Shown: one piece after another, positions 8,598 through 59,799 of the stretch
How the letters are laid out: each line of letters starts with the position of its first letter
How positions within the stretch are numbered: position 1 is the first letter of the stretch
Origin: an uncultured Desulfurococcaceae archaeon
GTDB lineage: Archaea > Thermoproteota > Thermoprotei_A > Sulfolobales > NBVN01
Direction: 5' to 3'
DNA length: 59,799 bases
Assembly (NCBI GenBank): GCA_964482405.1
Contig: CAYZXH010000003.1
Span: 1 to 59,799 of the forward strand
Program-made: the position numbers and the translations under genes
Notes under the pieces: generated by a model
Databases searched by the model: none
The model's input: only the letters and a program-made list of their open reading frames with translations
What the model was told of the DNA's origin: nothing

Positions 8598-10136
8598 GTG
8601 GGGTTGAGGGTACTGTTAGTGACCTCAAGAATAGCTAGGCCGATACTTGAGGAGGTGGTTAAGGACCTACGTGATCTTATTGATCTAGATGTTTTTGAGT
8701 TGAGAAGCGTTCCTATCGCTTCCTTAGCGACTACCAAGCTTATAGCTAGTGAACTAGCTACCTACGAGAAGTCGGGAAAAGCTGACTTAATAGTCATTCC
8801 CGGCTTGAGCATAGGGTCCGCGAAAGAAATCCAGAACTTGATTGGGATAAGAGCGGTCAAGGGTCCTAAGTACCTCGGCGACCTACCTGAGATGCTGAAG
8901 CAACTTCTTCAGGGGCTCGAGTTCAGCCCGGACGTTCCGGCAGACGAGGTCATGCGTGAAAAACTAACGAAGTATTATCAAACGAGGTTGAGTGAGGTCC
9001 TGCAATCTAGGAAACCCCTCTTTAAGTTGAGGAACGCCGTGTTCACGGAGACACCACCACCTCTCAACTTAATCTATGAATACCTAGTTAGCGAGTATTC
9101 CAGCGTTGAGCACCTAGAAACAAAACTTAACGAACTCAGAACCTTGAGTTATGAGGGTGTGGTAGTAGGGTGTGGTGTTGAGTGCAGGGCTCTAGACCTT
9201 GTCGGCAAGTTGTTGACTGTCAGCTCAGCACACAACATGTTGACCGGGATTGACTTAATCTACGAGAGTGTCCCTAAGGAGAAGCTTAAAGACTTGCTCG
9301 ATTTGAGCGACTTAATACTCAACATATCAACGAGTAATGTCGACTTAGTCGCTAGCTACTTAAGGACTGATCAAGCAGTCGTGGCGGTGCCTTCGAGTAA
9401 TGGGAGTGAGGACGTTATCAAAGTAGTTGAGACACTTCAAGATATGGGCTTCAATAAAATCTTAGTTGACACCATAGTTAGACCACCCACGCTAGGTTTC
9501 GTGAACAGCATAATAGAGTTGAGCAAAATAAGAAACAGGGTTAGATACCCTATCTTATTCAGTCCTGCTAACGTATACGAATTAATAGACGTTGATACCC
9601 CGGGGGTCATAGCTCTCTTAATAGATATAGGGTTCGAATTAGGTGCTTCATCCATATTAATCACTGAGTCAAGCGTTAAAGCTCGCGGCGCTCCCTTAGA
9701 AGCCTCAATCAGCAGAGAATTAATTTACAGAGCCTTCCTTAAGAAGTCACCCCCAGTTAATCAAGGGATAGACCTCCTGATAATCAAGGATAAGAAAGAC
9801 TTAAACATTCCTATACCAGTTCATGAAGGAGTCGTCGAGAGAGTTAGTGGTGAAGGCCAGCCACGCCTAGATATGAGGTATTATGTGAAAATCTATGTGG
9901 ATAAGGAAGGAAAGCAGATAGTAGTAGACGTTCATGACAGAAGCAGTAACAAAATTCTCAAAAGATACGTGGGAAGCAAAGCACTCGATTTAGGCAGAAC
10001 ACTATTGAGAGACTACGAGATAAACGTCGATCACGCCCTCTACATAGGTTACGAGTTAAGTAAAGCTGAGACAGCGTTAAGACTTGGTAAATCCTACGTT
10101 CAAGACGAAGACTTATTTAAACGCACCTATCATTAA
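8598..10136 (+). CDS. Dihydropteroate synthase-like protein with DUF4346-like C-terminus
   Basis: LIVIPG...KGP..DLP, NVYELIDVD, TESSVK, HALYIGYELSKAE..L...YVQD. Confidence 0.8.
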   Translation: MGLRVLLVTSRIARPILEEVVKDLRDLIDLDVFELRSVPIASLATTKLIASELATYEKSGKADLIVIPGLSIGSAKEIQNLIGIRAVKGPKYLGDLPEMLKQLLQGLEFSPDVPADEVMREKLTKYYQTRLSEVLQSRKPLFKLRNAVFTETPPPLNLIYEYLVSEYSSVEHLETKLNELRTLSYEGVVVGCGVECRALDLVGKLLTVSSAHNMLTGIDLIYESVPKEKLKDLLDLSDLILNISTSNVDLVASYLRTDQAVVAVPSSNGSEDVIKVVETLQDMGFNKILVDTIVRPPTLGFVNSIIELSKIRNRVRYPILFSPANVYELIDVDTPGVIALLIDIGFELGASSILITESSVKARGAPLEASISRELIYRAFLKKSPPVNQGIDLLIIKDKKDLNIPIPVHEGVVERVSGEGQPRLDMRYYVKIYVDKEGKQIVVDVHDRSSNKILKRYVGSKALDLGRTLLRDYEINVDHALYIGYELSKAETALRLGKSYVQDEDLFKRTYH

Positions 10137-10259
10137 CCACGCGTAATTATCCCTCACGTCTTCAGGAGGGCCCTAACCGTACACTTCTTGACCACGAGAA
10201 CGAGGTTTAGGGGGTTCTTCTTTTTAAAGCGATATTCTAAGTTATTCTTGGTGTGTAAA

Positions 10260-17475: not shown

Positions 17476-18840
17476 GTGAGTGAGATTAGGGAGATTAAGA
17501 GTGTTAGGCCTGAGGTAGTCTTAAGCCTGCATAGCCATATAAGGGGTCTCGGACTCGACGCTAATATGGAGCCTAAGCCTGTTGCGGGAGGCTTAGTGGG
17601 TCAGATAGAAGCGAGGAAAGCTGCGGGAGTTGTGGTAGATCTCATAAGGCAAGGTAAGATGACTGGTAAGGGGATCTTACTCGTCGGCCCCCCAGGTACT
17701 GGGAAGACCGCTCTGGCAGTAGCTATAGCGAGGGAGTTAGGCGAGGACACACCTTTCGTAGCCATAGATGGTGCAGAGATATACTCCACAGAAGTAAAGA
17801 AAACAGAGGTTCTCATGCGCGCCGTGCGTAAAGCTATAGGCGTTAAGGTCAGAGAAGTCAGGAAAGTTTACGAGGGTGTAGTCAAGAACATAAAAATAGG
17901 TTTCGTGAAACATCCGTTTAATCCGTACGCGAGAATACCTGGGGAGGCTAGAATAACTCTCGAAACTAAGGACGACTCAATAACTATATCGGTGGGCGAG
18001 GAAATAACTAGTCAATTAGTTCAGCTCAGGATTAAGAGGGGTGACCACATATGGATAGACGCGGAGACAGGTATAGTACACAAGGTAGGGCGGGTTAAGG
18101 GGGTTGAGGAAGCTAAATATTACGACATAGACTCAACACGTATCGAGGAGGAGATGCCTTCCGGACCGGTAAAGAGGGATAAGGAAATAGTGCGTGTATT
18201 CACCTTCAACGACCTAGACCTCTATGTAGCTAGTCAGAGACTCTCTATAACCTCCCTGTTCGGTGTTGAGTTAGAGAAAGAAATAGATGAAGACACGAGG
18301 AAATCCGTTAACTCCATGGTAAGGAAGTGGCTCGAGGAAGGTAAGGGAGAGATAGTTCCCGGCGTTTTATTTATCGATGATGCACACCTCTTAGATCTCG
18401 AAGCATTCTCCTTCTTGACTAAAGTCCTCGAATCCGAGTTCTCGCCTATACTGATACTAGCTACCAATAGGGGGGTTACCAAGATTAGAGGAACCGATAT
18501 TGAGTCACCTCATGGAATACCCTTAGACCTCCTAGATAGGTTATTGATAATCCCAATGAAGCCTTACAGCAGAGAGGAAATAAAGCAGATAATATCAATT
18601 AGAGCGGAGGAAGAGGAAGTCCAGTTAAGTAAGGAGGGTCTTGAACGGTTAGCGGACATAGGAGTCAGCCATAGCCTTAGGTACGCTGTCCAGTTACTCA
18701 GGCCCGCACACATAATAGCTGAACGCAAGAAACACCAAGAGATAACGCCTGAGGACGTTGAGGAGGCAACGAGGCTCTTCATAGACACTAAACAGAGCGT
18801 GGAGTTAATAAAGCAGTATGAAGGACAATTCATTAAGTAG
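17476..18840 (+). CDS. tip49: TIP49/RuvB-like AAA+ ATPase
   Basis: HSHIRGLG, GPPGTGKT, GVLFIDDAH, ATNRG. Confidence 0.95.
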   Translation: MSEIREIKSVRPEVVLSLHSHIRGLGLDANMEPKPVAGGLVGQIEARKAAGVVVDLIRQGKMTGKGILLVGPPGTGKTALAVAIARELGEDTPFVAIDGAEIYSTEVKKTEVLMRAVRKAIGVKVREVRKVYEGVVKNIKIGFVKHPFNPYARIPGEARITLETKDDSITISVGEEITSQLVQLRIKRGDHIWIDAETGIVHKVGRVKGVEEAKYYDIDSTRIEEEMPSGPVKRDKEIVRVFTFNDLDLYVASQRLSITSLFGVELEKEIDEDTRKSVNSMVRKWLEEGKGEIVPGVLFIDDAHLLDLEAFSFLTKVLESEFSPILILATNRGVTKIRGTDIESPHGIPLDLLDRLLIIPMKPYSREEIKQIISIRAEEEEVQLSKEGLERLADIGVSHSLRYAVQLLRPAHIIAERKKHQEITPEDVEEATRLFIDTKQSVELIKQYEGQFIK

Positions 18841-20877: not shown

Positions 20878-21405
20878 CTAATATAGTGAATCCCGTATCC
20901 TAAAGTACAGGTCTTTATGAATCCAGTCCCTGTTAGAGAGAGACACGGAAAACAATTCCCACCGACTGCTCAAGGACTTAAGTATGGTGTCCTTCAGCTT
21001 CCAGTGGATAACGGCTAGTAAAACCCTATCACTTCTTAAAACGTCGTAAATAGCTGACCTAAGCTGAGGAACCGACAACTCCATAGGACCTATCTCATCA
21101 ATAGCTATCAAGTCGGAATTCTCCACTGCTTTCTTGATGGAGTTGACCCCCACGGCTGTGGCAGCCTCCACGTTAACACAGTACCTCCCGATGCGTGGCT
21201 CCCCACCCTCACATAGCTCGGCTAACCAACCCTCCTCACCGCTTATTAAATCAACTATCTTGAAACCTATCCTCCGCCCACCTACCCGGACCTCAGGACA
21301 AATAAAACCACCTATTCTTAAGCCGTCCTCCCTCAGTAACTCAATGACTTTAAGGAACACCGTAGTCTTACCAACGCCTGGAGGACCACTAATGAAGAAC
21401 TTCAT
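20878..21405 (-). CDS. THEP1-family NTPase
   Basis: GPPGVGKT, GGF...RIGF, IDEIGPME. Confidence 0.92.
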   Translation of the reverse strand: MKFFISGPPGVGKTTVFLKVIELLREDGLRIGGFICPEVRVGGRRIGFKIVDLISGEEGWLAELCEGGEPRIGRYCVNVEAATAVGVNSIKKAVENSDLIAIDEIGPMELSVPQLRSAIYDVLRSDRVLLAVIHWKLKDTILKSLSSRWELFSVSLSNRDWIHKDLYFRIRDSLY

Positions 21406-58836: not shown

Positions 58837-59106
58837 ATGCAACAGAAAATTACTTTAAAAGACGTGCAAGAATTAATGAATAAGTACTACTTACAGAGGG
58901 ATCGTGAAAGAGGGTTATACGCAACGTTCACATGGCTCATAGAAGAAATAGGAGAACTAGCCGAATCAATACTAACCCAAGACAAGAAAGCACAAGAAGA
59001 AGAGATAGCAGACGTCCTAGCATGGCTAGCATCACTAGCCAACCTACTCTCAATAGACCTAGAAAAAGCATTCAAACAAAAATACATGAACCCGCAACCA
59101 CCATAA
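58837..59106 (+). CDS. MazG-like nucleotide pyrophosphohydrolase
   Basis: WLIEEIGELAE...EEIADVLAWL.SLAN. Confidence 0.88.
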   Translation: MQQKITLKDVQELMNKYYLQRDRERGLYATFTWLIEEIGELAESILTQDKKAQEEEIADVLAWLASLANLLSIDLEKAFKQKYMNPQPP

Positions 59107-59111
59107 CACAT

Positions 59112-59384
59112 CAAATCAGACACCCCCACCCCTCTGTTTCCACTGGAGAAAAACTAATATTTATTAAAGAATCAATTTCTAATTAAATTCTATATAAAAA
59201 GATCATTATACAAAATTTACAAAAATAAAGTAATTAAGCCATTTATGATCATGATTAATATTACAAATTTATAGAAAGTTTTGTATAATGATCTATATAA
59301 AGAGATTTAAAATTAAATAAAAGAAGACATTCTAAATTAATTTTTGTTTCCAGTGGAAACAGAGGGGTGGGGGTGTCTGATTTG
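59112..59384. other. Replication origin candidate: two inverted ORB elements flanking a 201-bp AT-rich DUE
   Basis: Perfect 36-bp inverted repeat (59112-59147 / 59349-59384) containing TCCAGTGGAAACAGAGGGGT, matching the archaeal ORB consensus. Confidence 0.85.
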
Positions 59385-59473
59385 TTATTTAGTTTTCTAT
59401 GAGGGACTTTATCTATCGGGAAACCAGTGCTTTTATTAGTTTTTGTTTAGTATATGTGGGTGTGGTCGTTAGC

Positions 59474-59749
59474 ATGGGTTTGTTGGTTCAGATTTTTAGG
59501 GATAGGAGGGAGATAATGATTTCCGGGATTCCTACTCAGTGGGTTGCTGAGAGGATAATTAGAGATATTAACGATATTCTTCAGAAGAGAGGTAGTGATT
59601 TAGTGTATTTCTTTGAGGGTAGTCCTGGAGTTTATGGTGGTGGGTTGGTGATTAGGGTAGTGCTTAACACTTCCTTAGGTGAAAATGAAGTCAATGCTCT
59701 CGTGAAGTATTTTGAATTAAGAAATTCTCATGTGAGTGTTTACTACTGA
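59474..59749 (+). CDS. Hypothetical protein
   Basis: ORF from ATG 59474 with plausible composition; no recognised motif. Confidence 0.6.
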   Translation: MGLLVQIFRDRREIMISGIPTQWVAERIIRDINDILQKRGSDLVYFFEGSPGVYGGGLVIRVVLNTSLGENEVNALVKYFELRNSHVSVYY

Positions 59750-59772
59750 AAGCCTCGTCCTTTAGGGCGGGG
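59749..59772. mobile_element. IS200/IS605-type terminal hairpin (solo end), possibly acting as a terminator
   Basis: AAGCCTCGTCC-TTTA-GGGCGGGG right after a stop codon. Confidence 0.55.
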
Positions 59773-59799
59773 AATGGTTGAAAAAGCTTGTGAGCTTCG

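Follow-up and report, generated by a model that had tools for sequence, protein, structure and literature searches.

Is the long inverted repeat at 59112-59384 of this archaeal DNA an origin of chromosome replication, and if so, what are the repeats nested inside it and where is the initiator that would bind it encoded? The stretch analysed here (the window) is the whole of contig C3 (59,799 bp), which belongs to a draft genome (G000) of 1.459 Mb in 66 contigs, and a first-pass annotation of its letters had proposed an origin at that place, with three nested levels of dyad symmetry and no orc1/cdc6 gene beside it. We find that an origin is the best reading of the element, when its origin recognition boxes (ORBs), its ucm sites, its conservation, its single copy, its synteny and the presence of an Orc1-1 ortholog in the genome are taken together. 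Judged on this comparative evidence, we consider it likely that the element is an oriC1-type chromosomal origin of the hot-spring archaeon Zestosphaera (Desulfurococcaceae), of the Orc1-1/ORB kind; it is very probably the site where replication of the main chromosome starts, and it would be built of known parts.

Anatomy of the element

The outermost symmetry of the element is a perfect 36-bp inverted repeat (59112-59147 / 59349-59384), exactly as it had first been described, and the outer arms as a whole remain 95% complementary over 42 nt (59112-59153 / 59343-59384). Between the arms, the GC content drops to 23%. The 16-bp perfect repeat that had been claimed inside is exact as well (AGATCATTATACAAAA at 59200-59215, pairing with TTTTGTATAATGATCT at 59279-59294) and sits within a 52-nt pair that is 73% complementary, while the expected short palindrome is present in the middle (Table 1). 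The midpoints of these three levels (59248, 59247 and 59248.5) agree with the common centre at about 59248 that had been proposed. When treated as single-stranded DNA, 287 nt of this region fold with a free energy of -69.5 kcal/mol, compared to -21.4 +/- 3.2 kcal/mol for 200 shuffled versions (z = -15.1).

Table 1. Features of the candidate origin and of its immediate surroundings (positions in the window)
Feature	Position	Strand	Description
MazG-like pyrophosphohydrolase gene	58837-59106	plus	89 aa; PF03819, E = 3e-11
Left arm tip	59112-59122		CAAATCAGACA; lengthens the perfect repeat to 36 bp; strain-specific
Left ORB	59123-59147	minus	dyad TCCAGTGGAAAC and double G-string AGAGGGGTGGGGG; G-string points left, off the AT-rich core
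AT-rich core	59148-59348		presumed duplex unwinding element; 201 bp between the ORB dyads, 85% A+T
Left box	59189-59202		TCTATATAAAAAGA; TATA-like and in part a palindrome; on the outer side of the left ucm, 2 bp from it; direct repeat
Left ucm	59205-59215	minus	plus-strand letters ATTATACAAAA, minus-strand letters TTTTGTATAAT; 57 bp to the left ORB dyad
Central palindrome	59245-59252		ATGATCAT; not conserved
Right ucm	59279-59289	plus	TTTTGTATAAT; 59 bp to the right ORB dyad, 63 bp to the left ucm
Right box	59292-59305		TCTATATAAAGAGA; 2 bp outside the right ucm; direct repeat of the left box
Right ORB	59349-59373	plus	mirror of the left ORB; G-string points right, off the core
Right arm tip	59374-59384		TGTCTGATTTG; mirrors the left arm tip
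Right-neighbour ORF	59399-59749	plus	no Pfam, NCBIfam or PDB match
Dispersed hairpin repeat copy	59739-59799	plus	enters multi-copy DNA and ends the contig; outside the origin

The ORB 12-mer TCCAGTGGAAAC, the arm-tip 16-mer and the inner-repeat 16-mer have two occurrences each across the 1.459 Mb of the genome, all of them at the element. Matches to the ORB 12-mer with 2 mismatches amounted to 5, for 4.67 expected; ORB-like 12-mers at 20997-21011 were attributed to chance, since they are found within a coding ORF and are not followed by a G-string.

The same structure was rebuilt in independent hot-spring metagenome assemblies. In these assemblies the graph is interrupted by the 36-nt arms, which leaves a 36-nt piece at twice the depth of the flanks and a 261-nt centre piece, and a 16,954-nt metagenome contig from a related strain spans the entire element in the same orientation.

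Two levels of symmetry are conserved in the genus

The element matches a single place per genome in the other genomes of the genus: it was recovered in full in 5 of 9 of them and as fragments in 3 more. Conservation was assessed on an alignment of seven genomes of the genus, in which the rows of G001 and G004 were flipped relative to the flanking genes. In all seven, the 25-bp ORB is invariant on both sides, including its double G-string, and the inner repeat is kept over about 27 bp on each side, while the length of the core ranges from 164 to 202 bp. The other parts of the proposed nesting fared differently. The central ATGATCAT is found in one of the seven genomes, the nearest relative G003 reading ATGATCGT there, and this palindrome is probably a product of chance. 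Likewise, only G003 shares the outermost 11 bp of each arm, which the other five genomes lack. In G003, the tips read CAAACCAGACA / TGTCTGGTTTG instead of CAAATCAGACA / TGTCTGATTTG, so that a T-to-C change on one arm is mirrored by an A-to-G change on the other; this suggests that the arms evolve in concert, not that the protein site is longer. Thus, of the three symmetry levels that had been proposed, the ORB arms and the inner repeat stand as conserved, and the pattern suggests that two levels are under selection, not three.

A side observation concerns the core of G001 (L032, G001:C23 ~9966-10216), which aligns better with four of five relatives when it is flipped relative to mazG and to the right-neighbour ORF. 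Its comparison with G002 gave 0.81 flipped and 0.72 unflipped, while the reverse was found with G008 (0.68 flipped, 0.71 unflipped). One inversion of the core between the ORB arms in the G001 lineage would account for this pattern, which is suggestive only.

The ORBs point outward, as in Sulfolobaceae-like origins

Of the 199 genomes of the order, 64 contain the pattern TCCAGTGGAAA-N2-8-GGGG, among them 37 of the 41 genomes of one family (f13), where the ORB letters are the same as in the window; a reversed-pattern control was detected in 2 genomes. This family would correspond to a Sulfolobaceae-like one. In all 12 f13 loci that were fetched, the ORBs are arranged minus-then-plus around a core with their G-strings outward, and an Orc1-1 ortholog (53-58% identical) adjoins them in 11 of the 12. 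A second minus ORB, exact or near-exact, lies beside the first in 8 of these 12 loci, as in the three-ORB layout already published. Of the 199 genomes, one contains the published 30-nt ucm oligo exactly: G185, which belongs to f13 and whose orc1-1-adjacent ORB cluster also has outward G-strings.

These loci bear on the polarity of the ORBs. The first-pass annotation had correctly noted that both G-strings of the window are directed off the AT-rich core, but it had also supposed that G-strings face the unwinding element in characterised oriC1s, which is not borne out by the 12 f13 loci and by G185. Since the G-strings are outward in all of these loci, the outward polarity seen here appears to be normal. 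The available portions of PMC3089459 and PMC4010727 contain no statement on ORB polarity. A contig scan for two ORB dyads 65-95 bp apart returned mostly bacterial repeats among the matches listed, with no named model crenarchaeon among these.

The best-known counterpart is the Sulfolobus / Saccharolobus oriC1 (ORB1, ORB2-DUE-ORB3 and ucm, with Orc1-1 and UBP), whose ORB dyad and first G-string letters are identical to those of the window. The two also share inverted ORBs, outward G-strings, an AT-rich core with ucm inside and an Orc1-1 ortholog in the genome. They differ in that the window has two ORBs instead of three, a doubled G-string (GGGGTGGGGG), a conserved box beside each ucm and no adjacent orc1-1 gene. 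The 201-bp core compares with cores of 88-213 bp in the 12 f13 loci (126 bp or less in 9 of them), and it contains two inverted ucm, in contrast to the single copy in mid-core at each of the 12 f13 loci, which has no more than one mismatch in 10 loci and two mismatches in the remaining two; a second, more degenerate match is found in 2 of the 12. Among Desulfurococcales, the oriC1 of Aeropyrum pernix is reportedly another origin whose ORBs are bound by ORC1.

In other families of the order (G088, G089, G102 and G010), ORBs flank a core that holds ucm, as here. One ucm copy is present in G088, in G102 and in G010, while G089 has two direct tandem copies 17 bp apart (GTTTGTATAATGAT and ATTTGTATAATGAT, between the ORBs near G089:C1 1295230, L218). 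No ucm was seen in the GC-rich loci of family f8, three of which (L213, L214 and L220, from G075, G076 and G066) contain one more ORB, oriented head-to-head with the adjacent one so that their facing G-strings are separated by about 43 bp. Among the loci compared, the inverted ucm pair at a fixed distance from the ORBs was seen in this genus only.

The inner repeat corresponds to two inverted ucm copies

In the Methods of Dhanaraju et al. 2025 (PMC12141716), as far as the article is available to us, a ucm oligo and its mutated control differ in 11 letters, ATTATACAAAC. Both copies in the window (ATTATACAAAA / TTTTGTATAAT) match this published ucm in 10 of its 11 letters, and they are identical to the TTTTGTATAAT found in the core of the orc1-1-adjacent oriC1 of G185. 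To judge by its letters, then, the inner repeat is a pair of inverted ucm copies and no new element. Consistent with this, 10 of the 12 f13 loci and 6 of the 7 genomes of the genus have ATTATACAAAC in their core at no more than one mismatch, where dinucleotide-shuffled cores give 0.10 and 0.11 loci with a ucm, respectively, and exactly two copies are present in all seven genomes of the genus when two mismatches are tolerated. In these seven genomes, the distance from ucm to ORB is 49-59 bp on both sides, while the middle stretch varies with the length of the core. Every f13 core carries (G/T)TTTGTATAAT midway. In the genome studied here, TTTGTATAAT has 5 exact copies where about one is expected, two of them at the origin, two upstream of the 16S rRNA gene and one on C24.

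The two copies upstream of the 16S rRNA gene are on C60 (3688-3722, L080), about 300 bp from the gene; they are direct repeats of ATTATACAAAA that stand 24 bp apart, with a TATA-like ATATAAATA after them. This pair may be a site for a nucleoid protein at the rRNA promoter.

What had been proposed for the inner repeats, namely that they bind a further origin factor, is very probably true on the strength of this match, and both the factor and its site have already been described as UBP and ucm (PMC12141716, in the parts available). According to these parts of that study, UBP is a basic and abundant nucleoid protein of 111 aa that binds ucm as a monomer and touches the N-terminal tier of MCM in Sulfolobus; ucm is required for the firing of oriC1 in S. 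islandicus and is present in both A. pernix origins. The protein corresponds to SiRe_1573 and Saci_0847 and to a chain of PDB entry 9EFD. Our search for an ortholog was confined to small basic proteins guessed from ORF lists: six of these proteins had no match among PDB sequences and ten had none in NCBIfam, while pattern searches with the spacing of the published residues K63/K67/K69/K77/Y100 gave no credible match.

A conserved box adjoins each ucm

On its ORB side, each ucm is adjoined by a box, TCTATATAWAnAGA, that is conserved in the seven genomes of the genus and whose core is a perfect palindrome, TCTATATATAGA, in G005, G002 and G001. The conserved inner unit therefore covers 27 bp, more than the 11 bp of ucm, which makes a second binder likely. 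The ucm of the f13 origins showed no such box beside it. Sub-words of the inner repeat, those of the box included, are not enriched in the genome beyond the copies at the origin.

A third copy of ucm and box is found on C4 (46598-46618, or L079:5598-5618; TTTTTTATAATGATCTATAAA, 19 of 21 letters), in the intergenic region between a gene for a 66-aa DUF5679-like protein and a DUF2299 gene. This locus has no ORB and no origin-like repeats. In G010, a genome of another genus, box and ucm occur together once.

If the inner repeats served a lineage-specific factor besides or instead of UBP, the 27 bp of ucm and box could be the site of a dimeric protein, or else a TBP/TFB promoter from which transcription through the ORBs would modulate firing. 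We regard this as a possibility with the odds clearly against it. It would agree with a box that is as conserved as ucm and palindromic in three genomes, with the lack of that box beside the f13 ucm, with the copies on C4 (away from any ORB) and in G010, and with the fact that no UBP gene was among the candidates searched; but the 11 bp held in common with Sulfolobaceae are exactly the published UBP site, and the lack of enrichment of the box sub-words speaks against it too. Even if such a factor exists, it would add to a reading as an Orc1-1/ORB origin with ucm sites, without replacing it.

The initiator genes lie on other contigs

Two genes of the genome score above the cut-off (181) of TIGR02928: one at C47:151-1350 (446.6 bits) and one at C27:16041-17321 (240 bits). 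Among solved structures, the C47 protein best matches Cdc6-1 of S. solfataricus (2QBY_A, E = 8.7e-136) and ORC1 of A. pernix (2V1U_A, E = 2e-125), and its segments KVPFTGLS, VTQRRVSDI and KVVNRGRYGKTKEI are identical to those of 2QBY_A. The contact residues G120/L121, R341 and R365, as given in the available parts of the published work, would fall within such identical segments. These matches identify the C47 protein as an initiator of the Orc1-1 type.

No Orc1 match above the cut-off was found on C3 or on C44. A weak match to the Orc1/Cdc6 lid domain at about 18.5 kb belongs to a gene for a TIP49/RuvB-like AAA+ ATPase (17476-18840, 454 aa), which is no initiator. Since contig C3 ends 415 bp past the repeat, the adjacency of orc1/cdc6 cannot be read from the window alone, and the claim that no such gene adjoins the origin, which we uphold, rests on synteny and on the location of the orc1 genes on other contigs. 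In six relatives, the DNA around the element encodes no Orc1 out to about 7 to 10 kb, except that the locus of G004 (10.8 kb) extends just about 0.7 kb on one side; orc1-1 and origin are on separate contigs in the 4 genus genomes checked (4/4), and no ORB was found within 3 kb of orc1 genes at 22 loci (two in this genome and 20 in Desulfurococcaceae relatives). There is a precedent in A. pernix, where neither cdc6 gene adjoins the predicted origins, according to the portion available of a review (PMC5333045). Across the order, none of the 8 ORB loci outside f13 has an orc1 within about 3 kb, which adds to the evidence that an oriC1 apart from orc1-1 is common outside Sulfolobaceae.

How the origin may work

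In the model that we favour, each of the two inverted ORBs would bind one monomer of the Orc1-1-type initiator encoded on C47, and ATP-bound Orc1-1 would recruit MCM hexamers onto the AT-rich core between the ORBs. The ucm pair in this core would provide two of the 11-bp sites that are essential for firing in Sulfolobus, and a UBP-like protein would bind each of them, as the UBP monomer does in Sulfolobus. Considering that each ucm lies 57-59 bp from its ORB, an MCM hexamer could be placed between Orc1-1 and its own UBP, with a spacer of variable length in the middle. We infer the binding of Orc1-1 and of the UBP-like protein, the loading of MCM and the firing from these correspondences. Against such a model stand the 5 exact copies of TTTGTATAAT, just a handful compared to the more than 300 UBP sites of the S. 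islandicus genome (PMC12141716, in the parts available), the lack of a UBP ortholog among the candidates, an initiator gene that is not adjacent, unlike in Sulfolobus, a GC skew without a switch at the site over the 72 kb covered, and a conserved inner element that is longer than ucm.

The E. coli oriC, with IHF and Fis, likewise has a nucleoid-protein site within an origin, an analogy drawn by the authors of PMC12141716 in the text available. The proteins there are unrelated and the initiator is different, and helicase loading on double-stranded DNA sets the present case apart.

More speculatively, the locus could be a symmetrised version of the Sulfolobus oriC1, made of two mirror half-origins that would each provide an ORB, a loading space of about 55 bp and its own ucm/UBP for one MCM hexamer, with the box binding a second factor and the core flipping occasionally. 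We put this forward tentatively, as an idea that has a reasonable chance of being right while being more probably wrong. The paired inverted ucm, their conserved distance to the ORBs and the free middle suggest that ORB, spacer and ucm form one functional unit. Whether one UBP contacts both MCM hexamers was left open by the authors of the UBP study, as far as the available text goes (PMC12141716); if each hexamer had its own UBP here, this would answer the question for this lineage.

What the locus presents is very probably a standard oriC1-type origin of known parts, with a tidy symmetric ucm layout and one extra conserved box. Three of its aspects may be new: the paired inverted ucm at 49-59 bp from each ORB, the second conserved box beside each ucm and a possible flip of the core in one species. 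Paired inverted ucm are not described in the portions available of the origin literature cited here. With this locus, Zestosphaera and its relatives gain a confidently placed origin, and they offer a natural experiment for the UBP model, which was developed from origins whose ucm is single and asymmetric.

Conserved neighbours and other readings of the palindrome

The flanks are as the first-pass annotation had described them, with a MazG-like gene on the left and an ORF without a family on the right (Table 1). The MazG-like gene adjoins the origin in all six relatives examined, and tblastn places the ORF there in 5 of 6. The conserved part of the right-neighbour ORF begins near residue 25, and the ATG at 59474 is its more likely start. 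Further to the left, the MazG-like gene is preceded by genes for Sec61-beta, a DUF432 protein, an MscS channel and a PF0610-like regulator.

A palindrome between two conserved genes could be regulatory only, as an operator or promoter shared by mazG and the right-neighbour ORF, or it could be a relic of an origin, with replication starting elsewhere. Such a function would be compatible with the TATA-like boxes inside the element, with the initiator gene being on another contig and with the skew profiles, since neither GC skew nor AT skew, taken along C3 and C44 (72 kb) in bins of 5 kb, switched at the origin, both being noisy. We nevertheless judge it improbable, because both 25-bp ORBs are invariant in seven species while the surrounding intergenic DNA diverges, because the combination of ORB and ucm is that of mapped origins, because mazG is transcribed toward the element and because the genome has no other ORB for Orc1-1. 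An Orc1-1/ORB origin remains our preferred reading.

The three GATC motifs of the element raise the question of a control of re-initiation by methylation, as at the E. coli oriC. As had been noted, the symmetric inner elements of this strain, three in all, contain GATC (59201, 59247 and 59289); the motif is kept in 4 of the 7 genomes of the genus on one arm, in 6 of 7 on the other and in 2 of 7 at the centre, a pattern indicating that GATC is not a selected feature and leaving methylation control very improbable. A mobile element, such as a MITE or a foldback element with terminal inverted repeats, can practically be dismissed: despite its long terminal inverted repeats and a different dispersed repeat 355 bp to the right, the element is single-copy and not the family of many dispersed copies by which a MITE would be recognised, it occupies one place with the same neighbours in each relative genome, and no target-site duplication was noticed by eye in its flanks.

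The end of the contig

The sequence beyond the contig end can be deduced from relatives. G003, which is 94-96% identical, is collinear across the gap and places C44 after the end of C3, and contigs of related strains from two runs go directly from the right-neighbour ORF into C44-like DNA. When their translations are read by eye, genes of C44 look like those for triosephosphate isomerase, fructose-bisphosphate aldolase/phosphatase, reverse gyrase, an NAD(P)HX repair enzyme and CTP synthase.

The contig break itself is explained by the dispersed repeat, which there runs into multi-copy DNA. The related strains are without this insertion at the origin-side site. An Rfam search gave sub-threshold matches only, the HgcC one (21.5 bits for a cut-off of 50) overlapping this repeat. 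The repeat unit is about 43 nt long (TTACAACTGAAAGCCTCGCCCTTYAGGGCGGGGAGGAGGTCAG) and forms a GC hairpin. The genome has 13 copies of it, each in plus orientation on its contig, and its depth in metagenome contigs is 40-fold that of the flank. The other copies are found at C2:38528, C4:40012, C5:31534, C14:22218, C16:29703, C22:14589, C26:22901, C28:16837, C29:19887, C31:18602, C42:158 and C54:4881. Five copies, including the one that ends C3, extend into longer shared sequence and resemble the ends of insertion elements.
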